Notes under the pieces: model-generated | Databases searched by the model: none | What the model saw: only the letters and a program-made list of their open reading frames with translations | What the model was told of the DNA's origin: nothing | Program-made: the position numbers and the translations under genes | Assembly (NCBI GenBank): GCA_032718475.1 | Contig: JAUCBJ010007180.1 | Coordinates: 18,159-82,158 of the forward strand | DNA from: Nemertoderma westbladi | Taxonomy: Eukaryota > Animalia > Xenacoelomorpha | DNA length: 64,000 bases | Reading direction: 5' to 3' | Shown: positions 22,742-50,959 of the stretch, in pieces | Numbering within the stretch: the stretch's first letter is position 1 | Layout: every line of letters starts with the position of its first letter

Positions 22742-23723
22742 TTAGTCTTTCTTGCGCGGACGGCGTTTACGCAGTTTTTTAAAGCTGACCAGAGTCTTTT
22801 TCTCTTTGGGGCGAGCCACTTTACAAGGAGGGCTATAACTCCTGGGTGAAGGGTGCAATATGATTGCATCAGAGGGTGTAGGATTATGGTCGGTGTATCC
22901 GCCAGTCGAAGTGCCGGGTTGATTGACATCAACGTCGGGGGAGAGTGGTCTAACGGTCTTGAGAGCGCGTTTTAGGACGGCCGCTCTTACGGGTCCTTTA
23001 CGAGTGGTCTGAACGAGAGCCGTGGGTGGACCATAGGCAGTCAGAAACTTCCTGGGTTTAATGGTTCTTTCCAACTCGCGCTCACGGGCTCGGTATTCGT
23101 AAGGCCGTCGATATACTTCCTGTAACTCGGGGTGTGAGTCAACAAATAAGTCTCCATAGTCCGGATCCTGACGGATATAATTGATTAAGTTATAGGAATG
23201 AAGGTCGCTAGGATTAACACTCCTGAGAAATTTGCGTACGAACTTGGTTGAAATACATTCTCCGACGCGCTTCAGTAGTTCGTAACTCGATATGCGGGAT
23301 TTCTGTTTGACAGAAGCGAATAGATAAGGATGGAACGCATAAACTCCTTCGTAAGCGTGTCCAGGATAATATATTTTTCGTGTTCTATTCTCAGTTTATC
23401 GTTACGACTCCGCTGGGTATGATATTTAAATAGAACCATTTCCCTTTCGGTGTCTACATCGTCAGTATCATGCAAGTCGATAGGATGGCCGGTAGTTAAG
23501 AAGTCCATATACGTACCATTACGATGCGTATAGCGAGTGGTGAATTTTCGATAGTCCAATTCACGCGTAAGTTGCTCTTGGGACATCGGCGGTTCGATAT
23601 AACGACCATCGTCCTCCGTAATGGTTGGATCGGCTTCACTGCGTATCAAGCTATCCACAAATGCTTGTAAAGGTAAGTATATCGCTCCCTGATACCAAGA
23701 TCATCTTCTATCAACTCCGTCAT
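22742..23723 (-). pseudogene. Element B accessory ORF region, internally deleted (~2 kb): ORF3a joined to the ORF3b C-terminus
   Basis: ATG 23723 (MTELIEDDLGIRE, then a 1-bp frameshift) is homologous to 46768-47115. At ~23375 it jumps to sequence homologous to A ~49100-49727, ending KKLRKRRPRKKD. Confidence 0.88.
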
Positions 23724-28300: not shown

Positions 28301-31300
28301 GGTCATCCAGTACTCTACCGGTTTCTGGTTGAGATCTCCTTCAGGCCACCACAGAAATCTCAGGCTGTCTCTATCTCTATCCAGCGCCTTGACTTGTAAG
28401 AACATTCCTTCTATATCGGAGGCGAACGCGATGGAATATTGTCTTAATCTTAAAAGTATTCCCAACAAAGATTGGAGTAAGTTGGGTCCTGGTAACAACT
28501 CGGAATTGAGGGATTGGCCCATATATAGAGCGGAGCCATCGAATACGACTCGTACTTCATGGGGTTTACCGGGTTTGGGAACGTAATGATGTGTTAAGTA
28601 ATACGTTCTCTCAGTCACTGGTGTTCCTTCCGGTACTCGCTCCGCGTATCCCTTTGTAATAAATTTCTTCAACTGAGTTTGGTACATTTCTTTAGCTGAA
28701 GCATTAGCCGTAAGGCGTCGATGTAATTGAGTGATTCTTTTCTCTGCCAAGGGTCTGTTATTTATAAATCTAGGTTCTCGTTTTCGAAATGGTAGGCCGA
28801 TTTCATATCTACCTTGATCTTTTAAAAAACGTGTAGTTGTTTCCTGGATTTGCTTGGCTCTTTCTTCTTCTATCGATAGGGCCTTATCGTATGAATTGGG
28901 CTCTACCAATTCTTTAGTAAAGAATCGTACGGCGAGTTCGTCCCGAGTTCTAGCGTTGTAGCGCTCTATCTCATCATTTAGTTCGTCATTGTAATCAATG
29001 GGTCCCGATGGGCGAATCAGTTGACATAGGTTCACCTGGTTTTTCCAAGTTTTGTTTTCTGTAAGTAGGTCGATTGTGTTCTCTTCATCGAAGAGTTGGT
29101 AGATGTCGTCATTATCTGAGGAGTATGGTGTTCCCTCAGTTAGTTCGTCCACCTCACTGCTCTCCACTTCCCAATCGTTTACTTGGTATATTCGTTCTTG
29201 TGGCATTCTCTCTTCGAGAGTTCTGCGGGAAGGGCCAGTAAAGTACCAACCTACTCTAGTTCTTACCGCATAGGTTTGCAGTGGCTGCGGTTGAGCAGGC
29301 CGTTTCTCCAATGTCTCGAGCGCCTCATGCGCGTTTTGGCCGATGAGTATTTGCACTCCAGGATAATCTGTCTGGAATCGAGGTATCTTAAGCTGTTGGA
29401 TGCTCTCATCCTCGTCCCAATTATAAAGTTCTGCTTGGGTAGTAGCGAAGTTCTTTATAGCCACCATTTTTACCGACCTTATACCTTGTGCTCCTAATTT
29501 ATCCTGGGGGGTGGACAACACACCTACATAGTAATCTGCCATTAGGGTAGATTTCCAAACCTGCATAATTCCTGACATATTCAATTTAGTCTGGAATTTG
29601 GGTTGTCCAGCAAAGATATCTTCGGCTAGTTCTTGATCGATGAATGTTCCTGTGCTGCCGGAGTCAAGGAGGGCATTCACTATGTAACTTTTGTTAGGAC
29701 CATGAACTCTTACCTGCACTACAGGAAATTCTCTGATTCCTACGTTGGAAGTTGGAGCTTTCCAAGATGGTTGTCTGGCAAAAGTAGTTGGGGGGAACTC
29801 AGTGTCGGTGTCCTTTTCATAAGTAAGTGCTCGATACACTGCGGTATTTATTAGGTAACAGGATTCGTTGGCGTCGGAGAATTCGTCAGTATAGAATCCT
29901 TCCATCTCAGACTCTTGATCAGTGTCATTTACATCACTGAATTGGACATGTAGTTCGGGCTCACTTACCTGACTCGGGTTGTCTCGTTCGAACTCACTGT
30001 GTAACAAGATGTGATGTTTCGCGCCACACTTTGCACACTTTACGTCGGAGTAACAGGTTCGCCGTTGGTGTCCTGATCTGAGGCAATTATAGCATAACCG
30101 CTTATCCCACATGACTGCACGTCTGTCTACAAGGGATTTCTTTAGAAATTCAGCACACGCACTCAAACGGTGGGGCCCGTCGCACAGCGCACAGTTTGGT
30201 TTGATGTTACTCACTTTACCTTGGGTAACGTGATGCACTCTCGTTCTTTCTTCGGGCTTTCTTCCGTGCATTCTGTTAGGAGACTGAGGAGGAGTCTTAG
30301 CAACCTGTTCTCTCCTATCTTTGGTTCGAGCCTTGTATTTACTTACGTCCTTTGAGGTTTTGTTAACGTAGTAAAATCGGTCAGTGTCTTTCCCGCTGTC
30401 CTCTTCTTGAGAAGCTTGGCTTTCGCCGTCGTCAGTGTAACATACTGGTGTTACTCTTCTCCTAGAAACGGGTTTCTCACTTACCTTATTTTCCGATGTT
30501 TTCTCTCTGGACTGCTTGATGAGTTATAGTTTTACTTCACCATCTAAGAAGGACATGAGATCAGCCATGGTAGGGCTTCGTTGTTGCTGCTCATTCATAT
30601 ACAACACTTTCTTGTCCCAACGCGTACATACTCCACCCTTTGGTAAAGTAGAGACTACTGCTCCAATAACCATGGAACTCTGATATTCATGAGACTTACC
30701 TAACCAGTCCAATTGTCTACAGATCTCCTGAATCTCATCGGAAAACTCTATAATCCCGCTACTAAGGAAGTTTCTGGGGGCTACTAATTTTGCATACAAA
30801 TACTTAGCTATGTTATCCTTGTTACCATACCTGATGTTTAATGTATCCCAAACTTGTCTTAATCCATCTGGATGTCCAATAAACTTTAACGCCATTAACT
30901 TGGGAGGTCCTTCCAAGCATTTGATGAGGAATCTAAGTTTCTCTCCGTTAGATAGTACAGAGTTCTGTATGCTATCTTTGTAATATTCATTAAAAGGTAA
31001 CCATTTCATCTCATCTCCATTGAATTTGACGATTTCTCCCACTTTGACCGCTTGGCGGGCTTCTGTTCTAGCCATCTGACGCGTAAAGCTTTCTTGGGCC
31101 ATCGTGTTATTTAATATCGAATTATCGGTATATAAATTTCCCGGATTATTATCAGGTCTATAGGGAATATCATTAACAACAGGTTTATAATCACCCTTAA
31201 TAGGGTTTGCTATAGGAGTTTCTACTTCACTAGCAGTATAGATGCGTGTAGGCTCCACACCTTGCGCATGTAATACTTCAGACCTAACAGGTTGACACAA

Positions 31301-33343
31301 TGTGACAGGGGGTATTGGTATACCCTTTTGTTTATTGACTAATTTGTCGCGTTCCAGCGCGATACTTTGCTGCACTTCTTGCAATTCTAACCTACTTTCC
31401 CTTACTGTTCCCTTAAATTGGTGGACAGTCTCCTGCATCTGTCCGAGCAGGAGATTCATCCCCCGCCGTCCCTCCTCTACCCACTCGACCGCCGAAGCGG
31501 GAGTCGCCAACATTGTAGCGGGCCGACGCGGGACGACGGGAGACAAATCTTTGATTTCTCTCTCAGTGTCCAGGACAGGGATATTCGCATGGACTGTTCT
31601 ACCGGGTACAGGCAGTGTAGTACTGTATAGAGGGAATTTAGAGTTAAGCTTTGGAAGTACAGGGGTCTCTAGCACAGGAGTGGCTTTGGGAACGACAGGC
31701 CTAATTATTTCAGGCTCATCAACTATAGTAGGGAGTCTTTTGACCTTAATAATTTGGTCTGTGGGTTCTGTACTACCTAAGTCTGTGCTAGCTAGTTGTC
31801 TTCTAACCGCTGGGGGCAAATCAGGCAATTTGTGACGGTGAGATGTTTTTCTACGCCTGCTTAGACGAGATCTATTTCCTCCGCCTTCAGGATTGGTGTT
31901 CTCGCCTTCCTCCGATGATGTGTATCCTTGGCGCTTGGGAGTAGATCGACTCATCATCTGCATTTGACTAGCAGTTAACTGTTTATTTATGCAGTCTTGC
32001 GTCTCTTGAAGATTTTCCAACTCCAGTTGGGTGGTCTCTTCCGACGCTCTCTGTTCTGCTTCTGCCAATGCCATTGCTGCTGCTGCTTTTGCTGCTTCTA
32101 CTGCCACTGCCGCTGCCGCTTTTGCCTCTTCCACTGCCGCTGCCGCCTTTGCTGCTGCTATTGCCTTTCTGTCCTCTATACGTTTTTTCTTTACTTGTTC
32201 TTCTTGGACTCTAGCGAGGCGGAGTTTTTCATCAAATTTAGCTTTGTTGGCAGCTAACATTTCCACATCGATTGAGTCCAACACAAGCTTGGCTCCTTCA
32301 CTATTGGGGCGAAGTCCAGCCTGTCGTCTCCTCAACTCTTCATCACCTAGGAAGCGTTGATAGTCTGACAGATAGATGTCTATGGCGTCTCTCGTCCGTG
32401 GTCTCTCTGCGGTCACTTCGCTTTCCACTTGAGAAAAGGTGGCATCGGTTGATTCTTCATAGGTTGGTCGCTCAGCCAGCTGGGATTTCCACTGGGCCGT
32501 TTCTTGTACTTTGAGACCTACCCGCTGGAACCAAGTCTTGACGGCAACTTGCAGCGACGTGTCCTGTCTTCTTTTGGAAGTTTCCTCAAAGGCTGATAGG
32601 ATTAGTCTAATGCGTAGGGTTCTTTCGCGTACTTGATATAGCAGCTCTTCCTGCTCTTGAGGTCATTGGGGTTGTCGAAACAGTTGTTCTTCTAATCGCT
32701 CTAAGGAGCCGAAGAATCCCTGCACATATCCTGCTGCCGACCTCTTCCAAACAGCTGGATCCATCGTATCTTTAGCCACTCCCATCCTGTGTATGTCTTC
32801 CCAAGTAGCTTCGGACAAATCTAACGGGAGTCCGGGTCCGGGAAAGTTCCATTGTGACTCGACAATAGACATCAATTCTTCCCTGGCGTATCCCGCATAA
32901 CTATCTTGGGTCGCTCGCTTACTTCTCGCCCAATCGACTTGGTGTTCCTCCACCGCAATGAATATAGTTGTTAATACTGCGGCAGGAAGGGTGAGAAGGG
33001 GATCCGAGTAGGCTGTAGCCGCCATCTGTACTCCGCGTTCGGGGGTCAGCTCTACAGTATCCGAACTACTGGAGCTATCGGGTCGCTGGGAACAAGTTTC
33101 TTGACTAGGATGTTGCTGCTGTTGGACAGCTGCTTCCTGGTTCTGTTTGACTTGGGCCCGAGTGCCGATGATTGACCTACGGTGTTGGATTAGCCTAGGG
33201 TCTGATACTACTACTGGAGGGATGACCTTTCTTTCAGTAGGAGGTGAGCTGAACCCCTTTCTTAATCGCTCCACACTCCTATCTGTGTCACAGATGGTTG
33301 TATCGATTAGACTGTCTGACAGGTTTTGCTTAGTGTCAGACAT
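25346..33343 (-). pseudogene. gag-pol: Element B single-frame gag-pol (~2660 codons) with 3 premature stops
   Basis: Gag knuckles CALCDGPHRLSAC, CYNCLRSGHQRRTC, CAKCGAKHHILLH. Protease LLDSGS; RT YMDD; RNase H FGDAS, RAEL, WTDA, NPADIASRG; integrase HHCC, GVDLFGP, SDKGTNF, GSWERL. Stops at 32663, 30524 and 26585. A 17-aa in-frame deletion in RNase H relative to A. Confidence 0.96.
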
Positions 33344-35384
33344 GCTTAGCTATACAGTTGAATGCTTACTGCTATAGTTACAGTTAAAGCAAGTCTAGTA
33401 ATTCAGTATGACCGTTGGCCTAGTACCGGTAATTTATTACAGTATATTAGAATACCGGTATACACTTATAATATATATAAGTATTGTAAACTAGGTTTGT
33501 CTCAGAATAACGGTATATAATTTTAACACAAATATATATAAATATATAATAGGCCTATCGTGAATACTGGTATACAGCCTACACTTATAGTATATAAGTA
33601 TAATTCTGGACTAGAATTAATTACAGAATACCGGTATAATTTCAGCCTAAATTTATAGAAATAAAGATAATAGGTCTATCGTAAATACCGATATATCAAT
33701 TATTTAAATAATTGAATTTCTGAATTTTAAAGGTTACTTAGTTACTTTAACTTACTTTACTACCGTTATTTAAGCAGTAGTCCAACTGATATTGAGACCT
33801 AGTTGTTGTATGGCAGGCCTACTATTTATAAATCGTTTGAGTTGATTTATAATATATATATACCCGTTTAAAATGGGTTTTGTCAATATTTGAAATAAAT
33901 GTTACTATTTCTGGGGGAGTCACTACACAGAAGCGGTGCGCTCTCAGTGAAGTGCTACTTATTGGACACTAAAACAGATAATTCTAATTTACCTAAGTTA
34001 CTTAATACTACAAATTACTTACGATACGGGTGAGATTAATTCTCTAATTAAACACAACAAAAATATTACGTACGAAATTTTAGGGTAATTTTACAGGAAG
34101 TCTACAAACCAGCCTAACAAAGGGTTAGAATTCTGGTTATTACAACGGACAGGGTACTACGGTATTTGAAAATAATAAGTAGTAGTAAATATATTGCGCT
34201 GTCCAGATAGGAAAATACCACCGTCTGACGACCTATAGCCGTATCGCTATAGGTACTACGTTATGTATCACGGAGTGTTCCTACCTGGAAGTTAATTACC
34301 GCGGACTACCAGATCCAACGTGCCTATTAACCACTTTACAACACAATACACTGCCTACACACTAATTACTTTCGGAAAGCACTGTACACTAAACCCTAAA
34401 TTAGGTACAAGTACTTATTAAAACAGATAACCAGCAGTTAAATATACTTGAACAATTAAAAGAACCACGGCATCTGCTGGAGTGACCGGAGCACAAAGTC
34501 ACCAGTCTTTACCTACGCCAAGCAGCCCGTGTAGTACCGGGGTTAATTTAACTATAACGGTATGTGTAACAAGCACAATTACTGTAGGAATAAACTTGGG
34601 GACATGAATGTTGCGAATAATCGTATAAACTCTGAATAATAAATATTACGCTACCCATACAGAATACTCAAACAAAATACAAAACAAACGCTGGCAGACT
34701 ACCACTAAGCCTAAATAAACTACAGTATGTGCAGATCCCAAAATGGTTAGTTAGTATGCGTTCTAACACGGTAGTACGACTTATTCTTTAGGAGGGGGTT
34801 GACCTTACAGCTCTGGATGCCCCAACTTACTAACTGGCACTTTATCAGACAAACTCTACACACGCAGCAATCTCTTCAGACCTAATAATAGCTAGACAAC
34901 AATCCAGCCTACAAAATATCTGAGTAATAACTATTACGGTACCTGAACAGACCACACAAACAAACACAGGCTAAAACGCTGGCAGACTACCACCAAGCCT
35001 AAATAAACTACAGTATGTGCAGATTCCAAAATGGTTAGTTAGTATGCGTTCTAACACGGTAGTACGACTTATTCTTTAAGAGGGGATTGACCTTACAACT
35101 CAAGATGCCCCAACTTACTAACTGGCACTTTATCGGACAGACTCTACACACGCCGCAATCTCTCCAGACCCAACAACAGTCAGACAACAGTCCAGCCTAC
35201 AATTATCTGAACAATCTGAGCAGACTTACACGTCTTCAGCTCAATATTAACTTACATGTAAATAAAACCGACAGAAATAAGTAAAATCTCAATAAAAAAC
35301 CAGGGCTGCAGTCCCTGATTAAATACTAAGACCTACCGGTATACAATAATCAAAATCGAACAATACTAATGTACTTATACTGGA

Positions 35385-35510
35385 AGTACCGGTTCAGGCA
35401 GTTAGGCCTACGGACCTACAGCAGTACCGGTTCTGGCAGTTGGGCCTACGGACCTACAGCAGTACCGGTTCTGGCAGTTGGGCCTACGGACCTACAGCAG
35501 TACTGGTTCA
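35385..35510. repeat. 38-bp minisatellite (~3 copies) in the leader of B
   Basis: CAGTACCGGTTCTGGCAGTTGGGCCTACGGACCTACAG in tandem; only a single degenerate equivalent in A. Confidence 0.88.
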
Positions 35511-35563
35511 GGTTTACCGGTCGACCGGTACTTTCAACTTTATTGCTTACTGCAATAAAGACA

Positions 35564-35574
35564 ATAACTGTTAT
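35564..35574 (-). promoter_or_regulatory. Non-canonical primer-binding position of element B
   Basis: Element-strand ATAACAGTTAT follows the LTR directly and is 11/11 complementary to element-strand ATAACTGTTAT at 36329-36339 in the LTR. Confidence 0.55.
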
Positions 35575-36765
35575 TGTACGCGCTTTTGAAGACCTTTAGC
35601 AGTTTAACCTGCCAAAATTTATATGTCTTTTGGTTTATAAATAGACTTTAGCATATGACAAGTATTTAATACCAATAAACACAACATTAGCCGAAGCCAG
35701 CCTAGTGCGCGTCCATTCACCCGCTGGATATACCCGGGAGACTGGATTCGGAGGGCTTAGATTGTTATTGCAGTGTAAGCTTACTGTATTATTCGATTGA
35801 TCGTTAATAAATAATTTCTGACGAGTATTATTCACTTTCGGGAAATATTAACAGTTCCTTTAGGACGTGGCGCTCTATCTAGGTAAACAGAGATATGTCT
35901 TATACTAAACACAACTGTAAGACTGTAAGGCTTATGATTCACGTATGAGGCGTATTCTTTAGGAAATGCTTAGTTATCAGCCACAATCATGCACACTACC
36001 GGTAACGCACGATACTGCACACTAATCTGCCGACCGTCAATGAATTTTATCATATATAAAGAGAACAGCAATTGACTCATGTAGTGCCTATCAAACCACG
36101 ATAATATAAGTCGCAATCGCTATATGTAACCTGTCTCTCTAACCTGTAGTGTATCAAGAAAATTGGAAAATTTGGGTTATTTATCGATGTTCTCCAAGTA
36201 ATAATATTCAACCAAACAACAGTAAAACCATTAAGACGGTAGGTTAAGATATGATATGACAATGTACCGATAATGTAACAATGATACGATCTGACGATCC
36301 GATTGGGTTGATTGAGTTGTTAAGGTTGATAACAGTTATACGTTCTATAATCTAAGCCTACTAATGTTTCTTCTAAAGTCTGAAATGAATTGACTCCAGA
36401 GCCTGTGTTCTTGGCCTAGATAGAAACAACAAAACTATAACACAGAAAACTATAAGACTGAACACTCCTAGCACGATCTGTAGAATATCTCCACATCGAC
36501 AGTAAAAATCGCCCTGATTGGCTGTTAAGCTAAACAAAGAACCATGTGTCCAATGGCCGTTTCCATGCCAGCAACCAGCTGTTAGATGTTGTAATCTGAA
36601 TCATCAAGGCTACACTGTGCTAGAGTATTTGACGCATTGCGGGTTTTGTGCCTGGCCATGTCCGCCAAAGCACACATATAGAAGAATGACTTTTATGTCC
36701 GTTAAAACACCTACAACGGTACTTTGCGGGCAATGGAACTGATTATATCCGCAAAAGCTTTTACA
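35575..36765 (-). repeat. 5' LTR of element B (1191 bp)
   Basis: TGTAAAAGC...GCGCGTACA on the minus strand; a diverged homolog of the A LTR. Confidence 0.97.
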
Positions 36766-39700
36766 TCCAGACGGATTAAGACAAGTTTGGGATACACTAA
36801 ACATCAGGTATGGTAATAGGAATAACATAGCTGGGTATTTGTATGCAAAGTTGGTAGCGCCCCGAAAGTTTATTAGCAGCGGGATTATAGAGTTTTCCGA
36901 TGAGATTCAGGAGATCTGCAGACAATTAGATTGGCTAGGTAAGTCTCATGAGTATCAGAGTGCTATGGTTATTAGAGCAGTGGCTTCTACTTTACCGAAG
37001 GGTGGAGTAGGTACATGCTGGGACAAGAAAGTGTTATATATGATGGAACAACAACAACGAGACCCTACCATGGCTGATCTCATGTCATTCTTGGATGGCG
37101 AAGTGAAATTACAGCTCATAAAGCAGTCCAGAGAGAAGACCCCGGAAAACAAGGTAAGTGAGAAACCCGTCTCTAGGAGAAAGGTAACACCAGTGTGTTA
37201 TACAGACGACGGCGAAAGCCAGACTTCTCAAGGAGAGGATAGCGGGAAAGACACTGAAAGATCTTATTATGTCAATAAAACGCCTAAAGACCAGGTAAGT
37301 AAATTCAAGTCTCGAACCAATGACAGGAGAGAACAGGTAAGAAAAACTCCTACGTCTCCCAAGAGAATTCAGGTGAGAAAGCCCGAAGAAAGAACGAGTG
37401 TGCACAATGTTACTCAAAATAAGGTAAGTAACATCAAACCGAAATGTGCACCGCCGTTTGAATACGTGTGATGAATTCCTGAAGAAATCATTAGCGGAGA
37501 GACGAGAAGTCATGTGGGATAAGCGGTTGTGTTATAATTGCCTCAGACAAGGACACCAACGGCGAACCTGTTACTCCGACACAAGGTGTGCAAAGTGCGG
37601 TGCGAAACATCATATCTTGTTGCACACTGAATTTGAGCGAAACAGCCAGAGTCAGGTAAGTGATTCCGAACTACATGTCCAATTCAGTGATGTGAACGAC
37701 ACTGACCAAAGTTCTGAGATGGAAGGATTCTATACAGATGAATTCTCCGACGAAGGTGAATCCTGTTACATGATAAATACCGCAGTGTATCGAGCACTTA
37801 CGTATGAAAAAGACCCAGACAACGACCTCACCCTAACTACTTCTGATCGACAACCATCTTGGAAAGCACCACCTTCCAATGTAGGAATCCGAGAATTTCC
37901 TGTAGTACAGGTAAGGGTCCACGGACCTAAAAGGAGTTATGTAGTGAATGCCCTCCTTGACTCCGGTAGTACAGGAACATTCATCGACAAAGAACTAGCC
38001 GAAGACATTTTTGCTGGACAACCCAAGCTCCGAACTAAGCTAAACATGTCAGGAATTATGCAGGTTTGGAAATCTACAGTAATCGCGGATTATTATGTAG
38101 GTGCGTTGTCCACCCCCCAGGATGAACTAGGAGAACATAGTATAAGGTCAGTAAAAATGGTGGCGATAAAGAACTTCGCTACCACTCAAGTGGAACCTTA
38201 TAACTGGGATGAGGACGATTTCACCCAGCAGCTGGAAATACCTAGATTCGACACCGATTACCCTGGAGTGCAAATACTCATCGGTCAAAACGCGCATGAA
38301 GCGCTCGAGACATTGGAGAAACGGCCCGCTCAACTGCAACCACTACAAGCTTATGCGGGAAGAACTAGAGTGGGTTGGTACTTTACTGGGCCTTCCCGTA
38401 GAACTCTCATGGAAAGATTACCGAAAGACCAGGTATGTCAAGTGAGAGAATGGGAAGTCGAGAGCAGTGAGTTAGACGATCCAACTGAGGGAACACCATA
38501 CTCCTCAGATAATGACGATGTCCACCAACTTTTCGACGAGGAGAATGCCTTCGATCTCCTTAAGGAAAACGAGACTTGGCAAAACCAAGTGAATTTATGT
38601 CAACTCCTTCTTCCAACCAAGTGAATTTATGTCAACTCCTTCTTCCATCAGAGCGAGACGACTATAATGACGAGCTTAATGACGTCATTGAACGTTATAA
38701 TGCCAAGACTCGGGACGAACACGCCGTACAATTCTTTACTCAAGAGGCTGTAGAGCCCAATTCCTATGATAAGGCCCTATCGGTAGAGGAAGAAAGAGCC
38801 AAGCAAATCCAAGAGACAACTACACGTTTTCTTAAAGATCAAGGTAGATATGAGATCGGTCTACCTTTCCGAAAGCGAGAACCAAAGTTCGTAAACAACA
38901 GACCCTTGTCGGAGAAAAGAATTGCTCAACTACATCGACGCCTTACGGCAAATTCTTCAGCTAAAGAAATGTATCAAACGCAGTTGAAGAAGTTTATTAG
39001 CAAGGGATATGCGGAGCTAGTACCGGAAGAAACACCTATAACTGAGAGAACGTATTATTTAACTCACCATTACGTTCCCAAACCCGGTAAACCACATGAG
39101 GTACGAGTGGTGTTTGACGGCTCCGCCCTCTATATGGGCCAATCCCTTAATTCTGAATTGCTACCCGGACCCAACTTACTCCAATCATTGTTGGGAATAC
39201 TTTTAAGATTAAGACAATATTCCATTGCTTTCGCCTCAGATATAGAAGGCATGTTCTTACAAGTCAAAGCGCTGGATAGGGATCGAGATAGCTTACGATT
39301 TCTGTGGTGGCCTGAAGGAGACCTCAACCAGAAACTGGTGGAGTACTGGATGACCATCCAAGCTTTTGGGATAATCTCGAGCCCTTCAAACGCCTGTTCC
39401 GTGGTGCGCACCACTGCGGATGACAACCGAGACGCCTTCTCTAAAGAGGTGATTGACAACATTAAGCGGGATATATACATGGACGACAATCTAAAGTCCC
39501 TTCCATCAGTCGAAGAAGCCATCGATGTCGCTAAAGGAACGGTAGAGTGCTTAAAAAGAGGTGGATTTCGATTAACTAAATTCACCAGCAACTCCCGTGA
39601 GTTTCTGGAGTCGATCCCGGTAGAAGATCGAGGAGCAAAAGACCTGGATCTAATAAAAGATTATCTCCCAGAAACTAAGACCCTTGGTTTGAAATGGGAC

Positions 39701-42342
39701 ACCGAAAGAGATATCCTGTTTTTCCAACTAAAACAGCGAGATAATCCAGTTCGGACTAAACGGATTTGTTTAAGTATCCTGAGCACTTATTTCGATCCAT
39801 TGGGATTTATTAGCCCAGTTATATTGATTGCTCAGAGTTTAGTACAACAAATGTGGCTTGAAAACCACTCATGGGACGATCCACTTAAGGGAGAGTTGTT
39901 AAAGAAGTGGATGAAATGGGAAGATTCTCTACCAGCCATCGAGAACTTTATAATTTCCCGTTCATATTTTGGTCATGTTCTCCCTACGTATTCCTATCAA
40001 CTCCATGTGTTTGGAGACGCCAGCGATATGGGAATAGGTATAGTAGCCTACCTAAGGGTGGAAACTCCGGACGGAATCAAAGTCGCCTTGGTTACTTCTA
40101 AGGCATTGATAAACAATCAGTTGAAAGTTCCTCGAGCGGAGTTAAAAGCGGCTCTATACGCTACAGCCATCGGCCGGAATGTAACAGAACAGATCGACTA
40201 TCCACTGGAGAAAACTGTCTATTGGACCGACGCTTTACTCGTGTTGGAGTATATAACCAAAGAAGTCTGTCAGTTCAGCGTCTTCGTTACCAACAGAGTA
40301 GCCATTATACTCAGTCGCACAACGATGGATCAATGGAGACATTGCTCCGGAACGATTAATCCAGCAGACATCGCCTCCAGGGGAGCAACTCCACAAGAAC
40401 TGGTAGACACTCCAGACTGGTTAGGTGGACCCGACTTCCTCTACAAAGAAGAAGAAGAATGGCCTCCTCATCTTACTACAGCAGAGATTAGACAGGCCAA
40501 GGGAGCGGAGAAAGTCAAACCTAAAACTCGGGCGAGTAAATCGAAGTTATTCAAACCCATGGTAGATCTGTCTGTACTACATATTTCCGGAGACAACGCT
40601 TTGGATCAGAAACCCACAGCCACAAATAAACTTGTTGTGGAAATCCGTGAGAAGGATTGGAAATCTGGAATACCAGACGTCTCGCAAGGACTCTCACCTC
40701 TTCTGCAGAGAGCGATACATCACTACAGTTCCTGGAATCGGCTCTGTAAGGCCGTTACATATTTAAAGAGATGTTTTCACCATCACTACTCCGGGATGAA
40801 GGCCAAAGGTGATACCGCTCCAATAACATCAGTGCAGGTCCATGTTATTAAAGATCTTCCCAAATATAAGATACCCGACAGGTTTCTGAAGGAGAAGATC
40901 AGTTATCAGGAGCATGAAGAAACCAACAAGCAGATGCTGAGACTCCTGCAATGCTATGAAGATTCCGATAAGTATTTCCTGTTGTTGAGAAATCCACAGA
41001 TGCGCTTAAGGGATCGTTTCTCTAGCACAATGATAGATGGGTTGATACGTGTTGGAGGAAGATTAACGAATGCTCCATTATCCTTTGACACTAAGTTCCC
41101 CATACTCATTAGAAATCTTGAAATACAAGTCAAGATGATTGTAGATGTTCACAGCAAACTTTATCATGCTGGTAGGGAATGAGTTCTTAGCGAAATTCGA
41201 ACTCGCTATTATTTTTATAAACCCCGTAGAGCTCTGAACCAAGTTCTTAGGAACTGTATACCCTGTAGGAAAGCATTCAGTAGGCCTTTAACACAGCGAG
41301 AGGCAGAATTACCTAGGGAACGAGTAAGCTTCTATGAACCACCCTTTACTAATACCGGTGTGGATTTATTTGGCCCTATTGAAGTATATCGTGCTAGGAC
41401 TATAGTCAAGAGATGGTGTGTAATCTTTGTTTGTATGACTTGTAGAGCTATCCATCTCGATATGGTGAACGATTTATCGACCAACAGCTTCCTATTAAGC
41501 TTACGACGACAGATCGCTCGCTTTGGCACTAGTAACACGATGAGATCTGATAAGGGAACTAACTTCATTGGTGCCAACAATGAAATCAAAGCTTACGTCA
41601 AAGATTGGAACCAAAGACAGGTGGACGATCAGCTACGAGTAACAGCGTCTAGCTGGACCTTCAATGCCGCCGACGCCCCTTGGTGGGGAGGAAGTTGGGA
41701 GAGATTAATAAGAAGTGTGAAGACAGCATTTCACTTTATAGTGCCTTGCCGCGCTTATCTCACCGACGAACTTTTGCGGACGTTAATGGAGGAAATCGCC
41801 GCCTATCTCAACGAGAGACCGCTTATGCCAGTCTCATCGAGTCCCGATTCCCTGGAAGCGCTAACACCCGCGCACTTCCTACTGAAGAAACCTGTAGCCA
41901 TGCTACCACAATCGGAAATCACAGACGGAGACGAATACTGCCGGCAAACTTGGCAACTCATGCAGTTGTTATCCCGTCGTTTCGCTGACCATTTCGAAAA
42001 ACATTATCTGCCCACGCTACAACTTCGAACTAAGTGGTTTGCTTAGCAAGAAAACGTCAGCGCTGGAGACATGGTTCTTATTGTGGATGTAGATCTTCCA
42101 CGTAAGCGGTGGCAGACAGGTCGTATCATCGAGACTCACATCTCGGATGACGGTTTGGTGTGATCGGTAGAACTCGTCGTCATGCGACGTAACTTCAAGA
42201 AACCGGGAATTGTCTTCGAGACGCAGCAGCTCAATCGCCCAGTTGGTCGCTTATGTTTACTGGAAAGAGACAGAGAACTCTCCGGAAACTATGGGAGGCA
42301 AGATACTCTTCCCACGACCACCTCCCTAATCCAACAAACATC
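36766..42342 (+). pseudogene. gag-pol: Element A gag-pol, remainder (Gag knuckles, PR, RT, RNase H, IN)
   Basis: Same motifs as B. Frameshift at ~37450, a 32-bp tandem duplication at ~38583-38646, and stops at 41180, 42044 and 42161. Confidence 0.96.
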
Positions 42343-45124
42343 CAGTAAGCAACCGAGGGTGGACTCTCTATAGCCGAGGGGCACTTGTATAATAACTAAT
42401 AATCACGAACCCCGTCCTCTTATAATATATAACTCTGTAGTAGTCAGTAGTAGTAGTAGTAATAGTAGTAGTAGTAGTAGTATAAGTAGTAAGTAATAGT
42501 AAAGGAGATCGGTTTAAACCAAAGTGATAAAGTAACATTATTATATAACATAATCATATAGACAAAGTAGAATAAGATACAGATTCATAATTATTTTATC
42601 AAACTCATGTACTACTTACTTCAATGTGCCAATTGTAACAATAATTAAACATATTATTCCGATTAATCTGCGTTTGGCCCTATAAGATATTATACTGAAG
42701 TGTTTTATATCAATATATCCATGCGAGTAAACAAGAAGTGAAGTAAATGTTTATTATTATAGTTTTAGAAATTGAATGATATACCCAAGATAGTGAAATA
42801 GATAATATACAAGAAATTGCCATTTGATCAGATATATCAAAGCGGCGTCTTTAGTATAATACCGTAATAGTGTCAATTAACTCTGTTATACAATGTAAAT
42901 ATACTAAATCTATTTATAAATATATTATGAGCCCTACATTGTATATTTCTCCTACAGGTAGACAATGTAGTATGTTAAAACTTGATATAATTTGGTATAA
43001 TGTATAACATATTACAAATAAGACTGAGGCAGCTAAACTATATTGCAAAGAAATCAAATATCCTAGACCCTCCCTCCACCCTATAAATAGTGTTCACCAC
43101 CTACCCCACCCACTGCCCTTATTACTTCATAATAATGAAAGATAGTACTGGTGCTCCGGTCACTCCGTTCCCTCCGCTGGGGGGGTTAAGTTGTAGGTTT
43201 TGACACTATGCAAAATCCGAGCAGAGTTAGAAGCGCATTGGATAGGCGAACATTTCTTGCAGTGAAAGTATTTCCATACCTATTATAGTTTTCGAGATAG
43301 TCAGACATGAGTAGCTAAAATTTGAATTTTTTTTGGTAAAGTCTGATTTCACCGGTACCTATCATCCGAAATATGGATTGTGATATATCGTTAGATGCGG
43401 GTCCACTAAGTGTACATTCACATATTTTCAAGGAAAAAATTCGATCAAGGATTTTCGAAATATTTTCGAATTACCGGAAGCAGACTTTGGACGACCATAT
43501 CTCCGGTACCGATAGGCCTATTGAGTCGAAATTTTTTTTAATCTACTTAGAACACTCCAGTGAATGTTTTTTAGTTTGAAAGTTTTGCCCCAAAATGCTC
43601 AGAAGTAATTTCGAAATAACTGATCATTTCGCGATCATGATCTTTTGACCTCCTAGAATTGAACTTTTTTATGGTCAAATTTTGGCTACCCCCCTAATAC
43701 GATGGTGAGGAATCTTTTTGTAATGTTAAGTTTTTTCATACGGTGAACTCACAGGACTTGGTCTTCGAAATAAAACCGAAAACATGATCTTTCCTGATCA
43801 TGGCCTGATCAAATCGCTTTTTAAAAATTTTGAAATGCTCAAAAGTTGCCCCTTCTTAATAGAAGTCGATTAGTAAAAAAAAATCGGGGGTCTCAAACAA
43901 AGTTTTAGAGAAAATCGGGAAAGACTGAAAAACACGATCTTTTATGATCAGGAAGCTGATCTCGAGAACTGGTTGCCCGATCGAGCCAATTTTTTTTTTA
44001 ATCAACTCAGAATAGACCATTGCACATTTCTTACAATGAATGTTTATTAGAAAAATGCTTAGATTCGATTTTAAATATACTGATCTTTTCGCGATCATGA
44101 TCTTGAGTTTTGACCCACTAGACTTGTACTTTTTTATGCCCAAATTTTGGCTACCCCCCATAATTTGAGGGCGAGGAATCTTTTTGTGATGTTAAGTTTT
44201 TCCATACGGTGAACTCCCAGGCCTTGCTTGGTCTTCAAAATAAAACCGAAAACACGATCTTTTCTGATCGCGGCCTGATCAAATCGCTTTTTGAAAATTT
44301 CGAAATGCTCAAAAGTTGCCCCTTCATCATAGAAGTCGATTCGTAAAAAAAAAATCGGGGGTCTCAAACAAAGTTTTCGAGAAAATTTGAAAAAACCGAA
44401 AAATATCATCTTTAATGATCAGGTATCAGATCTCGAGAACCGGTTGTCCGATCGGGCCAATTTTTTTTTTTAATCGACTCAGGGCGGTGTTCTGAACGTT
44501 TCCTACAGTAATTGTTTATATCCAAAATGCTTAGTTACGATTTTACGAAGTCCGATCTTTGCGCGATCATGATCTTGCGTTTTGACCGGGAAGAATTCAC
44601 TTTTTTTAAAATCTTTTAACGGGAATCATGACTAATGTGGGGTCGCTGAATCTTTTTGTAATGTTAAGTTTTTCGATTGGAGCAAGCATTGAGTGTCCGA
44701 TTGCTGATCAAAACTGATCTTTGCTGATCATGGTCAAGATCATGATCTGATCGCTCCAAAAAAAATCTCTTGAAGGTAAACCCATATGCTGCCTATCGAT
44801 TGGCGCCGGTCCGTAGCATTAGCGGTTCTGGACTTATCTCCATAGCAACATGGTTGCTAGGGAAGCGGACTTTTTGACTCAAATTGGCCCTAGCTGGAGA
44901 ACCGTAGACTTTTTTAACACATTATGTATGGCGAAAAGTCTTCTGGATAAATTTTGGGGGGGGCCTAGGAACATCCTCTTGTTCGTTTTCGCTTAGTTGC
45001 TGAGATCCTCTCGTCCCACAAATTCCAGGATTCTATAAAGGCATTCTGCTGGACTAGTTCCGTGGCCGGAATAGTGTTCGGTGTTCTGCGAACAGAGAAC
45101 CTAATCGGTTTAGGGCCCTGACCG
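42343..45124. mobile_element. 2.78-kb non-coding DNA-element insertion at the end of A's integrase
   Basis: B reads AAACATCTAGGGACTCC uninterrupted; A reads AAACATC[insert]TCTAGGGACTCC, an apparent 2-bp TSD TC. Contains (TAG)n at ~42437-42500 and ~465-480-bp tandem modules at ~43490-44760. Confidence 0.8.
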
Positions 45125-45683
45125 TCTAGGGACTCCCCAACTTAACAATGGCTGGAGTGGGTGTATGACTGTTTTATTCTTTTATATTTATGTATATATT
45201 ATTATGTAATTTTATTATAATCGTTTTCTTTAATTTTACTTAGTAGAATGTTATTTTAGCGATTATTTAGTAGATTAGTGCAATATATATTCGCGTTTAT
45301 TACTTAATTACTTATAAATTATATATTTAAGGCGACGGCGAGAAATAATTCTTTTTCTCCTTCCTTACTGTCCGTATTACATTACGAATACGTAGCTACA
45401 GTAAGATGAAATGTCCGTACTTATTAAAGTACAATAAAGCCACTACTATACTCAAGTATTATTGGTAGGCAGAGTATTAGGAATGCAAAGTTCAGATCCT
45501 CGTGTCTCGGCTAAACCAAGCTCTGGGTAGACCTTGGAAACGACTTGCCTCTTCACACTGACATTGCTTCGTGCGATATTGCTCTCATACCGTATATTAA
45601 ATAATACATATAGTAGCGTGATGTCCCTTTAACAGTAGCATATAACGCAAAATAAATCTGTTAAACCCTTTGACCATCTGCAA

Positions 45684-45948
45684 TTCTAGTCGATTAAGAT
45701 ATCGCGGCACCCACCGATATACTTGAAAGACAAAATTCTAGAATCAGTGGTTAACGTCCCCAGGCAATTTCTGGAATAAACTGGTGCCCATCCTAAATAT
45801 TAATTATTAATATTTATAAAATCTGTCGAAATTTTAGATCCTTTAAAATTCTAGTCGATTAAGATATCATAGCACTTATCGATACTCTTAAAAGGTCAAA
45901 ATTCCTAGAATCAAGGATCCCAGTCCCCAGACACGTTCTGGAATAAAA
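45684..45948. repeat. ~165-bp-period duplication in the post-pol non-coding region
   Basis: TTCTAGTCGATTAAGATATC...TCTGGAATAAA at 45684 and 45849; also duplicated in B (~24540-24800). Confidence 0.85.
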
Positions 45949-46579
45949 TTGTGTCTATTTAACATTAAATAATAAAATTTACGGGAATAAATTTAAATTC
46001 AGATATTTCAATGAATTCAATAAATTGTCATTTTATACAATTTATACCATTCCCAAAATTCCATTAATTAATAGATCATGGGAGCGGAGATTCACTCTAT
46101 TAAGTGTATTTGTATGCGAGAATCTCCAATATATAGTCAATAGCCGATAAAATTCATAAAATCATATATAGAGAGGATATTGACAATTAAATAATTACTA
46201 TTAAATAGCATCCCAGATATGTATGCATGAGAATTACCCTAATTCTACCGCTAGCTTTCCATAATGTCACCATGGCAACAACCACACTAGAATTAGAAGT
46301 GAGTTAAAAGAACAATAGAAGGCTTGCCCCATTGAATAGCATAGTGAAAAAATAGCGCACTGCTAGTATCCAAGGATACATAATAAATACAGTGACATTC
46401 TGGAAGGTACTGACTAACGGACAAATGGCCCGAATGTGTGCAGTTTATGGCAGTTGTGTTGAATTTGTGCGTTTGTAGGTGAATGTTACTACTAAGGTGT
46501 GTTTACAGTAGCGAGTCGCAATTGTGAAAGTAGCCCTAACTCTCCAGAAAGAACCTGCAGTACATCTAAGCCTTTGGGA

Positions 46580-46687
46580 CGGACAGTGGAGTGACTTGTG
46601 CCGGTTATCGTTGTCGTTGTGTAGCTACATCGTTGGCGAAAGCACAGCGACGACGGTACATCGGCGCTGAGGATCTTACACTGTCCG
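46580..46687 (+). ncRNA. Conserved long RNA stem-loop upstream of the accessory ORFs (function unknown)
   Basis: Nested stems CGGACAGTG/CACTGTCCG, GTGCCGG/TCGGCGC and TATCGTTGTCGTTGTG/CACAGCGACGACGGTA. Retained in B (23804-23907) with a U-A to G-C compensatory pair. Confidence 0.6.
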
Positions 46688-46767
46688 GGGGCAAAAGAGG
46701 GGTAGGCAGCGACGCCCGCTAGCCTAATATATAAACTCATTATAATATTGATAAACTCATAGCAGAT

Positions 46768-47166
46768 ATGACTGAGTTGATAGAAGATGATCTCGGTATT
46801 AGGGAGCGATATACTCTACCTTTACAAGCGTTTGTCGATAGCTTGATACGCAGAGACGCTGGTCCAACTACTACGGAGGATGATGGTCGTTATATCGAAC
46901 CGCCAATGTCCCAGGAGCAACTTACGCGTGAATTGGATTATAGAAAGTTCACCGCTCGCTATACGCATCGTAATGGTACGTATATGGACTTCTTAACTAC
47001 TGGCCATCCTATCGATTTACACGATACGGACGATGTAGACACCGAAAGGGAAATGGTTTTATTTAAATATCATACCCAGCGGAGTCGGAACGATAAACCG
47101 AGAATAGAACACGAGAATTCTATTCGAAATCAGCTCGAAAGAAAGAACGTGGAAGAAGGCTTGTAA
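46768..47166 (+). CDS. Element A accessory ORF3a, 132 aa, unknown function
   Basis: Clean ATG. Amino-acid conservation with B (DDGRYIEPPMSQEQLTRELDYRKF...HPIDLHDTDDVDTEREMVLFKYHTQRSRND) with mostly third-position differences. Confidence 0.75.
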   Translation: MTELIEDDLGIRERYTLPLQAFVDSLIRRDAGPTTTEDDGRYIEPPMSQEQLTRELDYRKFTARYTHRNGTYMDFLTTGHPIDLHDTDDVDTEREMVLFKYHTQRSRNDKPRIEHENSIRNQLERKNVEEGL

Positions 47167-47951: not shown

Positions 47952-49727
47952 ATGGAGAACATTCCATACCCTTTCGTTGATACTCAGCTGATTGCTCCCT
48001 GGGCAGAAGGCCGAGGTTTCTTCCGCACTATGTATGCCAATACACCCAGCGGCATTACCAAAGTACAACAAACCTCCATCGGACATCTTGCCTTTCAAGA
48101 ATACGGATGGAATTTCAAGGTTGGAAATCCTATAAATTACCAACAAGTATATGGAGATCATTATTCTCGTTTATACTTTGATGGACCATTGACCGCACCT
48201 GGCGCTGTGTATAGCTTTATGAGTGTTCCACTTCGTCCCTCCTTAGCTATATACACGATCTTTGAAAACGCAGCACTTGCCGGTTGGCATGCCGATGTGT
48301 GCAGTCGTACCATACGCGCCCATCCATTAATACTTGGAACCAAGCTCGCCAAGTTAGATGAACACAATAAATTCATCCGCTTCGAATGTTTCAGGCGCTT
48401 TCTGACTCCGTTCCGTAACGTTGATAGTCAGTTCAAGGACCGCGCTCTGACCAAACTCAGCCTAAGGGACTCAGCTGCGGAGAAGCTAAACAGCGCGGGA
48501 TTTGCTCTCTTTCAGGACGTTTGTATACAGAACTTACATTCATCTGTTATACAAAGACCCCGAATACCCACAGGTTATTCTGTCGTGGAAGTTCAGACAG
48601 TGGGTCCGCTTGCGGAGACAGCCGCACCTACCTCAGCTATGCAATTGGAAGACGAACCAATATGCTTAGAACCTGAAGCGATCCAGCCTACAGCGCCCCG
48701 GAGCAGCGATAACGACTACGTCTTAGAGTGGTATCAAGGTCCACAATGTCTTACCGCATACGATTATCGACACGCTAACTATGTTTCTCGAAAACGTTGT
48801 CGATTATGCGCATCGAGAGACCATTTCACCCCTATGGACTCAGACGTACCCTGCTCCTATTTCCACGAACAACCGATGATGGAGATATATTGTGCGTATT
48901 GCAGACTTAATAACTCTCATATTTTTGCAGTCTGCCCCCAATTTATGACTCAATGCCACCACTGTCAACTTAAAGGACATGCCAGTTATAATTGCCCCTT
49001 TAATCGCGATTTAGAGAGCGTAGATGAGATGATTACCCTGTGCTACATCCGAGCTTGGGAAGCGAACGCGCATTTGCATTGTGAGTCCCGCCATCGCTAC
49101 TACCCTGGACGCTCTTACGAGGGAGTTTACGCGTTCCATCCTTATTTATTCGCGTCTGTGGAACAAAAAACACGCACACCGAGTTACGAACTAATGAAGC
49201 GTGTTGGTGAGTGTATTTCCACCAAATTTGTTCGAAAATACCTTAGGAACGTCAATCCTAACGATATTACTTCATACCATTTGATCAATTACATCCGTCA
49301 AGACCCTGAGTATGGCGATTTATTTATCAACTCGCACCCTGAGTTACAGGAAGTATCTCGACGGCCCTACGAATATCGAGCCCGAGAACGCGAGCTGGAA
49401 AGAACCATTAAACCAAGGAAGTTTCTCACCACTCACGGTCCGCCTACCGCCGTTGTCCAGACGACCCGTCAAGGACCCGTAGGAGCTGCTGTCCTAAGAC
49501 GCGCCCTAAAGGCCGTTAGACCTCGCTCCACTGAAGTTGATATCGATCAACCAGGTACCTCAACCGGTGGATACACCGATCGTAATCCTAAACCTTCTGA
49601 TGCAATTGTATTGCACCCTTCACCCAGGAGTTACAGCCCTCCTAGTAAAGTGGCTCGCCCCAAAGAGAAAAGGACTCTTGCTAGCCTCAAAAAACTGCGT
49701 AAACGCCGTCCGCGTAAGAAAGACTAA
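47952..49727 (+). CDS. Element A accessory ORF3b, 591 aa, zinc-knuckle protein with basic C-terminus
   Basis: Uninterrupted ORF with CRLCASRDH(x9)C, CAYCRLNNSHIFAVC and CHHCQLKGHASYNC (CX2CX4HX4C), ending KKLRKRRPRKKD. The C-terminal ~200 aa are conserved in B with many synonymous changes. No signal peptide or TM segment. Confidence 0.88.
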   Translation: MENIPYPFVDTQLIAPWAEGRGFFRTMYANTPSGITKVQQTSIGHLAFQEYGWNFKVGNPINYQQVYGDHYSRLYFDGPLTAPGAVYSFMSVPLRPSLAIYTIFENAALAGWHADVCSRTIRAHPLILGTKLAKLDEHNKFIRFECFRRFLTPFRNVDSQFKDRALTKLSLRDSAAEKLNSAGFALFQDVCIQNLHSSVIQRPRIPTGYSVVEVQTVGPLAETAAPTSAMQLEDEPICLEPEAIQPTAPRSSDNDYVLEWYQGPQCLTAYDYRHANYVSRKRCRLCASRDHFTPMDSDVPCSYFHEQPMMEIYCAYCRLNNSHIFAVCPQFMTQCHHCQLKGHASYNCPFNRDLESVDEMITLCYIRAWEANAHLHCESRHRYYPGRSYEGVYAFHPYLFASVEQKTRTPSYELMKRVGECISTKFVRKYLRNVNPNDITSYHLINYIRQDPEYGDLFINSHPELQEVSRRPYEYRARERELERTIKPRKFLTTHGPPTAVVQTTRQGPVGAAVLRRALKAVRPRSTEVDIDQPGTSTGGYTDRNPKPSDAIVLHPSPRSYSPPSKVARPKEKRTLASLKKLRKRRPRKKD

Positions 49728-49805: not shown

Positions 49806-49814
49806 TGGGAGCGG
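49806..49814 (+). promoter_or_regulatory. Short polypurine tract of A
   Basis: TGGGAGCGG immediately before the 3' LTR, identical in B; overlaps a small TCCCA/TGGGA hairpin. Confidence 0.7.
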
Positions 49815-50959
49815 TGTAAAGGCTTTTGCGTAATTAGCCGGTTATTTTCCCCGTAAAGTACTCTGTAGTTGGTTTAACAGGCATAAAAGGCCGTGTCCTT
49901 ACTGTATTGTTGTTTTAGAGGACATAAAAGTAATTTCTTCTGTATGTGTACTTTAGCGGACATAATCCGCAATTTTATGACGCAATAAGCCGGATCCTCT
50001 TGAAACAGTGTAGCTACCATGACGACGGCTAACAGCTGATATTGCCACGTAGAACATCTCTTTGTTCTTTGTTCTCTCTTTGATCGGTCGACCAATCAGA
50101 GCGTTTTTTGCCTCTGTGTTAGATGGTAGATAGAAACTCTTGGAGTTGAGTCAGTATGTGATTTTTCCACAGCCTACAACACCGGCGTGGAACCTCCGTG
50201 TTTCAGTCTTTAGTTCAACATTAGTAGGCTTAATTATAGAACGTATATCCGTTATCAAACCAACTAACTTACTCACTGATCATATCAATTCTTAACATTA
50301 CTGCTTTGCTGTCGGTTATTCATTATATTTGTTGATGTAACATTATATTTGGAATACTGATAAACAATCAGACACCCCAATCTTCTTGATATACTAAAGG
50401 TTAGAGAGACCGGATACATATAACGATTGCGACTTACATTAAGTGGTTTGAAGTGAATCTAATGCTATTTTATAGGCCCTACACGTATTGTCTGTTGTTC
50501 TCCTTATATGTGACTAAAATTAGTGAAGGTCGGCAGATTAGTGTGCACATTGTGCAGTATTGTGTATGATTGTGATTGATAACGAAGCATCTCCTAAAGA
50601 ATGCGCCATATACGTGAATCTATAGCCATCCCGTTGTGTCTGGTTTAAGTCATAACTCTGTTTATATATTTAAAGCGCCACGTCCTAAAGGAACTGTTAA
50701 TATTTCCCGAAAGTGAATAATATTTGTCAGAGATTATATATACTAAGATCAGTCGAATAATACAGTAGGCCTATCCCGCAATACGATTAGGCTTCCGAAT
50801 CCAGTCTCCCGGGTATATCCAGCGGGTGAATGATCGCGCATAGACTGGTTTCGGCTAATGTAGTGTATCAAATATTTGTCGTAGGCTAAAGACTATCTAT
50901 TATCTAGAAGACATCCTAATTTGGCAGGTTAAACTGCTAAAGGTCTGAAAGCGCGAACA
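49815..50959 (+). repeat. 3' LTR of element A (1145 bp)
   Basis: Near-identical to 15527-16672. Confidence 0.97.

Follow-up and report, generated by a model that had tools for sequence, protein, structure and literature searches.

ORF3 and the element that carries it

We analysed a 64-kb stretch of DNA from the xenacoelomorph Nemertoderma westbladi (assembly GCA_032718475.1, contig JAUCBJ010007180.1, positions 18,159 to 82,158 of the forward strand; hereafter the window, whose coordinates are used throughout). Comparison of the window with itself delimits a long terminal repeat (LTR) retroelement, element A (15527-50959, plus strand), and at the env position of A lies ORF3, an accessory open reading frame (ORF) for a non-envelope (non-Env) protein of 591 aa (47952..49727, plus strand; ATG at 47952, TAA at 49727). 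The original prediction had placed an intact sense-strand ORF here, just ahead of the polypurine tract (PPT), and we found it as described, with 87 nt separating its stop from the 3' LTR of A and with some uncertainty about its 5' end. The longest stop-free run by chance was 191 codons (300 shuffles of 42400-49800), compared with 591 in ORF3.

ORF3 has three Cys/His clusters, predicted to be zinc knuckles, at residues 283-348 (48798..48995, plus strand). Cluster 1 (residues 283-301) reads CX2CX4HX9C, cluster 2 (314-328) reads CX2CX5HX4C, and cluster 3 (335-348) is the single canonical CX2CX4HX4C that had been claimed. The segment ahead of the knuckles (residues 201-275) is acidic and Pro-rich (4 Lys plus Arg versus 11 Asp plus Glu), and the region past them is helical by prediction, with an Arg/Glu-rich predicted helix at residues 470-490 (49359..49421, plus strand). 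The protein ends in KKLRKRRPRKKD, a Lys/Arg tail resembling a nuclear localization signal (NLS) (residues 580-591; 49689..49724, plus strand). Both the tail and the helix (21/21 residues) are identical in element B, a second copy of the family described below; by our estimate, chance alone would give a run of 21 at 83% identity.

By hydropathy, the one measure applied, no membrane helix or signal-like stretch was found in ORF3 (maximum 1.1 in 19-residue windows; 0.79 in 11-residue windows over the first 30 residues), as the original prediction had it. Neither of the Env traits sought in this way, a signal peptide and a C-terminal transmembrane anchor, was seen in ORF3 or in ORF-X, a second accessory ORF whose hydropathy maximum is 0.46. 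ORF3 has one N-glycosylation sequon, its sole furin-like site falls within the basic tail, and no homology to viral fusion glycoproteins was found in Pfam, 1.84 billion representative sequences or the PDB sequences. Hence, ORF3 is a real gene at the env position and is not an envelope gene, in line with the earlier claim.

The LTRs of A (15527..16672 and 49815..50959, both plus strand; 1146 and 1145 bp) have TG...CA ends and differ by 4 mismatches and 1 one-base gap. A 5-bp target duplication (15522-15526 and 50960-50964) flanks the element, and a PPT-like stretch (49806..49814, plus strand) abuts the 3' LTR. The 5' LTR is followed by a 2.2-kb leader with a 290-bp tandem pair (16673..18916, plus strand; ~90% identity to B) and by gag-pol (18917..45145, plus strand), whose frame is disrupted by stops and frameshifts and which two insertions, B and one of 2.78 kb, cut apart. 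Element B, of the same family, lies inside gag of A (21452..36765, minus strand) with its own 5-bp target duplication, and its LTRs (35575-36765 and 21452-22663, minus strand) differ by 9 mismatches and one 21-bp gap. Its gag-pol is one frame of 2666 codons with 3 internal stops; that of A has 7 clear stops or frameshifting indels plus the 2 insertions.

The 2.78-kb insertion (42343..45126, no strand assigned) sits in the last codons of A pol, contains three ~470-bp repeats and is not in B. Related copies were taken from contigs of one public run, X1 (share 0.12), which is only guessed to be RNA, may be DNA, and may come from the same or a related species; over the insertion these contigs have a depth of 0-1 compared with 20-100 in the flanks (joint 42340-45125). 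There is a short palindrome near its 3' end, and a clear target duplication was not seen.

We assign A and B to the BEL/Pao group (family Belpaoviridae) on their coding sequence and ends. The Pfam domains DUF1759, Peptidase_A17, Integrase_H2C2 and DUF5641 are found on the B gag-pol frames, and the order protease, reverse transcriptase (RT), RNase H, integrase with Pao-specific domains was confirmed in B. The integrase of B has a wide DDE spacing, D(61)D(49)E, near the D(62)D(49)E of Sinbad, and Gag of B has the full Pao triple Cys-His box, given in the available part of PMC554778 as CX2CX3-4HX4C, CX2CX2-4HX4-5C and CX2-4CX3HX4H. The TG...CA ends and 5-bp target duplications of both elements conform to BEL/Pao. 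The nearest database relatives of the RT-RNase H region are BEL/Pao polyproteins at ~41% identity, including echinoderm, cnidarian, amphioxus and fish records; with the integrase as bait, no related loci were recovered (0/4 and 0/57 candidates).

With the two inserts subtracted, A is ~17.3 kb long. Belpaoviridae are described as 4.2-10 kb with one to three genes (PMC8742986), and BEL/Pao elements have a median of 7.4 kb and a maximum of 22.8 kb in the part of supplement 9 of PMC3118150 that was available, so A, with two non-Env extra ORFs, falls outside the descriptive range of the ICTV (the international committee for virus taxonomy) and inside this size maximum. The belpaovirus primer site is an 18-nt tRNA-complementary stretch after the 5' LTR (PMC8742986); in neither A nor B did the 12 nt adjoining the LTR show a TGG-type primer-binding site. 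The first 7 bases after the 5' LTR are identical in the two elements (A 16673-16712, B 35535-35574).

Selection on ORF3

B keeps a remnant of ORF3 (residues 383-591; 22742..23371, minus strand) that is open to the same stop as in A, the remainder being deleted. Over these 209 codons A and B are 83% identical and in frame, and 74 of the 111 differences are at third codon positions. We found dS of 0.80, dN of 0.08 and dN/dS of 0.10 (95% bootstrap 0.06-0.16), compared with 1.5-1.7 in the control frames (two shifted and one antisense). In the same pair dN/dS is 0.04-0.19 for pol and 0.24-0.26 for gag, which places both ORF3 and ORF-X within the pol range and below gag. The earlier statement that the C-terminal third is kept in B with many synonymous differences is thus accurate.

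Since B is without residues 1-382 of ORF3, the X1 contigs were used for that part. Twenty-one contigs cover residues 1-383 from the start codon onward (3 at 90-95% and 18 below 90% identity), and the spacer upstream of ORF3 is almost uncovered by X1 contigs at 80%. Among the best 40 of 207 differences, 29 are silent and 28 are at third positions, compared with 25-30% silent expected (p < 1e-7). Three of these best 40 differences fall in the knuckle ligand codons C301, H343 and C348, and all three are silent; the indels among the listed differences amount to one compensating pair, in one contig. Together, the low dN/dS of residues 383-591 and the silent excess of residues 1-383 point to purifying selection across the whole ORF3 frame in several copies, and bear out the past purifying selection that had been proposed.

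The original prediction had also set the open state of ORF3 against at least seven lesions in gag-pol of A. The lesions are real (seven plus two insertions), but at 6-8 lesions per 8.1 kb the chance that a 1776-nt frame stays open is P 0.17-0.27; hence, openness amid decay is a weak argument.

Two types of deletion, one in B and one seen as a joint in X1, strip most of ORF3. They are independent and begin within ~12 nt of each other (47115-47126, near the end of ORF-X; B and one X1 contig). We rejected them as splice products, the ends being without GT-AG, and as in-frame ORF-X/ORF3 fusions, after inspecting the joints by eye.

At the 5' end, an in-frame stop lies six codons ahead of the ORF3 ATG in A. 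Two X1 contigs diverge from A right at the ORF3 start and, read by eye, are stop-free for 6 and 11 codons upstream; they agree over four shared codons, with two silent third-position differences. It is conceivable, though we lean against it, that ORF3 is the 3' part or 3' exon of a longer gene. Alternatively, these open contig ends may belong to two related copies with a common untranslated region. A decayed upstream frame in A, starting at 47348, was not established: it has 4 stops in ~200 codons, a shortage with a post hoc P of 0.06, or 0.40 if the spacer is taken as a whole.

ORF-X, the RNA hairpin and other features of the window

ORF-X (46768..47166, plus strand) encodes an acidic, soluble protein of 132 aa. 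Its copy in B (23378..23723, minus strand) has a one-base gap near the start and lacks the last codons, which are deleted. Between A and B, dN/dS is 0.065 (0.02-0.16) compared with 1.1-1.6 in off-frame controls, and 20 of the 26 differences are at third positions. The length of ORF-X is unremarkable (matched in 21% of shuffles), and no homologues were found in a word-index search (0/4 candidates), Pfam or PHROGs. Judged by its codon changes, ORF-X is a second accessory gene under purifying selection. The original prediction was thus incomplete, a second selected ORF and a hairpin having been overlooked. A tandem AG acceptor-like motif lies 2 bases ahead of the ORF-X ATG in A and B alike. A TATA-like word ~40 nt ahead of ORF-X in A was considered as an internal TATA box and rejected, as it is not conserved in B.

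Upstream of ORF-X we found a predicted rod-like RNA hairpin of 123 nt (46570..46692, plus strand; 49 pairs, 11 of them G-U), a candidate cis-acting element that ends 75 nt before the ORF (46692 to 46768). Its z score is -5.64 in A, where 0 of 200 shuffles were equally stable, and -4.56 in B. It is the strongest of 78 windows (39 per strand) and is specific to the sense strand (antisense z -0.8). Rfam gave no match at E 1 over 42300-51000 and none at gathering score across the window. A small second hairpin lies beside it (46570-46726), and both are kept in B; the pair could be an export element, a signal for ORF-X translation or a small-RNA precursor.

The non-coding spacer from pol to ORF-X (45146..46767, plus strand; 1.6 kb) is conserved, diverging from B by ~9% compared with dS of 0.33-0.80 in coding parts. 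Taken with the 5' leader (16673-18916), the A/B difference is 9-10% compared with synonymous values of 0.3-1.1. Constraint, mutation bias or recombination between lineages are all possible causes. One block in the spacer (45427-45626) is identical at 195 of 200 positions. A second exact copy of the PPT 9-mer lies at 46079-46087, with one at the matching place in B and none elsewhere in the window, and may be an additional point from which the plus strand of so long a genome is primed.

Outside A, the window contains a broken non-LTR element with an Ulp1 (Peptidase_C48) domain ahead of its RT (59114-62711), which we take to resemble CRE/NeSL-type elements. It also holds a tandem array of ~675-bp units, 98-100% identical, that extends off the window start (1-3140), imperfect palindromes at 52553-53344 (~790 bp) and 55658-55961 (~300 bp), and tandem repeats of 52-53 bp (57648-58140).

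Possible role of ORF3 and comparison with known systems

Searches for relatives of ORF3 were negative in a word-index search (0/6267 candidates), in PHROGs (0) and in viral and metagenome contigs (0/4 and 0/54 pattern matches), and the ESM Atlas gave no usable match with the whole protein. The ORF3 search of PDB sequences brought up nitrite reductase alone (E 0.6-0.8); this, a match of the knuckles to MsrB (E 0.062) and one of ORF3 to the Pfam family EAD2 (E 0.08) were rejected as chance. The knuckle region weakly matched Pfam zf-CCHC_3 (E 1.7e-4, 21.9 bits, under the 27-bit cut-off), the NMR structure of yeast Air2 (E 0.13 with an 81-residue query) and CCHC/Air2/HEXBP clusters of the ESM Atlas (0.76-0.88). 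The original prediction had named a dN/dS near 1, a host or Gag origin and an existing description of the family as contrary outcomes; we found dN/dS of about 0.1, no host or Gag homologue and, in the literature searched, no such description. ORF3 very probably encodes a functional nucleic-acid-binding accessory protein, a core common to the readings of it as regulator, counter-defence factor, transactivator or nucleocapsid that follow.

Genes far downstream of pol need spliced or subgenomic messages, and full-length RNA must escape nuclear retention, which dedicated proteins achieve in complex retroviruses and in the element Cer1. In the element described here, a 14-15 kb transcript would be both the unspliced genome and the source of messages for two downstream genes, which poses this retention problem. 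ORF3 has the make-up looked for in an export factor of the CERV/Rev type, being a selected non-Env element gene with a Cys finger and an NLS-like motif. CERV is the product of the env-position ORF of Cer1, a Gypsy element of C. elegans; in the available part of PMC10309623 this ORF is non-Env, combines a Cys finger with a candidate NLS, and is needed for export of genomic RNA. By analogy, we tentatively favour ORF3 as a CERV-like nuclear RNA-binding post-transcriptional regulator of the genomic RNA of its own element. The nuclear, nucleic-acid-binding factor of the original prediction, whether for export, transactivation or suppression, is likewise a proposal from motifs and from the likeness to CERV.

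On this model, ORF3 and ORF-X would be expressed from spliced or subgenomic RNA, as is general among retroelements. The ORF3 protein would enter the nucleus via its basic tail, and its three zinc knuckles and Arg-rich helix would bind the full-length RNA of the element, with the hairpin at 46570-46692 as the candidate response element. The bound RNA would then be licensed for export or survival, much as the RNA of Cer1 is by CERV. We would expect the protein to act in trans, in keeping with the two independent deletions that remove most of ORF3.

Several points weigh against a regulator of RNA export. Given the two deletion types, ORF3 is dispensable in cis. A full phmmer search over the 1.84 billion representatives returned 0 homologues and so offers no tie to an export pathway, and all knuckle matches are weak, lying below significance or curated cut-offs. 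The AlphaFold models of ORF3 (mean pLDDT 35 and 41) are without usable structure, because there is no alignment, and Foldseek searches with them carry no meaning; the only segment above pLDDT 70 is the Arg/Glu-rich helix near 470-490. ORF3 has 4 matches to nuclear export signal-like patterns and 3 to NLS-like patterns, which are short and common. Covariation between A and B lends the hairpin little support (one pair changed in a compensatory way and another on one side only; in the register of A, one pair broken and two gapped), and, being 75 nt upstream, the hairpin may serve translation of ORF-X instead. No public run recorded as RNA was found to contain the stretch, and X1 covers the LTR and spacer deeper than ORF3.

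A broader form of the export model is that of a complex belpaovirus, with ORF3 and a rod-shaped 3' RNA element as an independently evolved Rev/RRE-like pair that exports the unspliced genome, and with ORF-X from the same cassette; we regard this as somewhat unlikely. The proposed logic is that of Rev and its response element (RRE), namely an Arg-rich-helix protein that acts with a structured RNA located towards the 3' side of the genome. Rev, however, is a protein of ~116 aa without zinc knuckles, and binding and export by ORF3 are predictions. No match to CERV or Rev was found in Pfam, the 1.84 billion representatives or the PDB sequences, CERV itself not having been compared directly.

Air2 is a subunit of TRAMP, and ORF3 might instead be a counter-defence factor, its knuckles serving as decoy or competitor of TRAMP/exosome surveillance or of small-RNA silencing, in which case the RNA would be shielded and not exported. 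Knuckles 2 and 3 follow the Air2 order (CX2CX5HX4C, then CX2CX4HX4C; PDB 2LLI, 3NYB) with the same spacing and linking CP..QC pattern, an AIR2-like Atlas cluster matches at 0.79, and action in trans fits deletion copies that still moved. However, the Air2 similarity (E 0.13) is not significant, tandem CCHC knuckles match one another easily, and nothing beyond the knuckles matches. The Air1/Air2/ZCCHC7 family has five knuckles; ORF3 has three clusters and gave no AIR2 family match in Pfam. Nor was fast amino-acid change seen (dN/dS 0.07-0.16), and we consider counter-defence unlikely.

A transactivator of the Tat or Tas kind, with the LTR or a promoter inside the element as its target and the hairpin in a TAR-like role where a subgenomic RNA begins, would account for the Cys-rich region, the basic tail and the acidic, Pro-rich segment, and the TATA-like word ahead of ORF-X would suit it as well. 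That word is not conserved in B, and CCHC knuckles usually bind single-stranded nucleic acid; such a role seems quite improbable.

To similar doubt we put an extra nucleocapsid or chaperone that aids packaging or reverse transcription of a very long genome. The knuckles and basic segments are nucleocapsid-like, the genome is ~17.3 kb against the median given above, and the element has a second PPT-like word and no TGG-type primer site. The full Pao triple Cys-His box is, however, already present in Gag (read in B), and ORF3, at 591 aa, includes further domains and finishes in an NLS-like segment. This function, too, is improbable.

That ORF3 is a passenger without further function in the element, i.e. 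the Gag or ORF1 of a different element or a fragment captured from a host gene, is largely refuted by selection and very improbable. The Gag-like order of a helical N-terminal part followed by zinc knuckles, the lack of a resolved fold and the possibly incomplete 5' end would fit a passenger. Against it, A and B carry ORF3 at the same site and close it with the same stop, dS being 0.8 and dN 0.08, changes are silent in several further copies, no repeat flanks it in the window self-comparison, and no homologue was found. A copy of Pao Gag was rejected, since the knuckle spacing is off the Pao pattern (available part of PMC554778) and none of 120 BEL/Pao polyproteins compared gave a match to ORF3 at E 10.

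Least probable of all is that a longer membrane or Env-like protein has lost its 5' portion to decay in A and that ORF3 represents its cytoplasmic or 3' portion: the upstream frame from 47348 is mildly hydrophobic and two contig ends are open beyond the upstream stop of A, but the stop deficit is not significant, the hydropathy peak (1.6) is a single window, and the spacer is uncovered by related contigs at 80%.

Among known elements, Tas, Cer7 and Atlas, which are Belpaoviridae with Env, share with A the gag-pol domains and their order, the LTR structure and the position of the third gene (PMC8742986; available parts of PMC9094657 and PMC554778). In the same sources their third gene is an envelope glycoprotein, whereas neither a signal-like nor a membrane segment is present in ORF3 or ORF-X. 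BEL/Pao genes according to the ICTV are gag, pol and env only (PMC8742986), from which this element differs in its ~17.3 kb, two extra non-Env genes and lack of a TGG-type site beside the LTR. The original claim that described BEL/Pao third ORFs are Env agrees with this account; it is qualified by a second-hand mention of overlapping ORFs in C. elegans elements in the available part of PMC9094657, so that an accessory ORF may have been described before in BEL elements of nematodes.

Family-specific extra genes in the stretch from pol to the 3' LTR, with long 3' regions, are found elsewhere. As far as the available parts of these papers go, LTR elements of bdelloid rotifers have non-Env ORF3s (PMC5408684) and plant Retand/Grande elements, of the Gypsy lineages, have additional 3' ORFs, the Grande protein being reported as nuclear (PMC11963269), but a triple zinc-knuckle protein is not among the ORFs described there. 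Accessory domains occur in the giant planarian Burro elements (PMC6431247) and small ORFs ahead of gag in Drosophila MDG1 elements (bioRxiv 2025.03.14.642691), again from the available parts of both. A full-text literature search, including the available parts of PMC3118150, PMC2774666, PMC8556966, PMC6238403, PMC12440569 and PMC554778, with Repbase and subscription papers outside its range, found no BEL/Pao family with a non-Env zinc-knuckle gene. Hence, non-Env genes at this position are known in Gypsy elements, and for BEL/Pao we found none described.

BEL/Pao genomes are described as simple, of the form gag-pol(-env), and little is understood of how they replicate (PMC8742986). With its two non-Env genes under selection, and with a hairpin in both copies, the present family suggests that regulation in the style of complex retroviruses may have arisen in BEL/Pao too, a candidate protein lying next to a candidate RNA element. 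Should ORF3 export genomic RNA, retroelements would have one more independent way round the nuclear retention of their unspliced RNA; if it blocks surveillance or silencing, it would be a rare counter-defence protein encoded by an animal transposon. Whatever the mechanism, two orphan protein families are added.

The closest parallel to the export model is Cer1 with its protein CERV, as far as the available part of PMC10309623 describes them. Two differences speak against the parallel: Cer1 is a Gypsy element whereas A and B are BEL/Pao, and CERV combines a single C4-type loop with a G-protein-like domain, in contrast to the three CCHC-type clusters of ORF3, in which no fold was recognised. Moreover, the export role is experimental for CERV and is proposed for ORF3 from motifs and analogy, and the BEL/Pao element differs in having a second accessory ORF and a hairpin. 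Both have a non-Env ORF at the env position with a Cys finger and an NLS-like motif, and the Cer1 ORF supplies the C-terminal half of a protein made by splicing, a parallel to the uncertain 5' end of ORF3.

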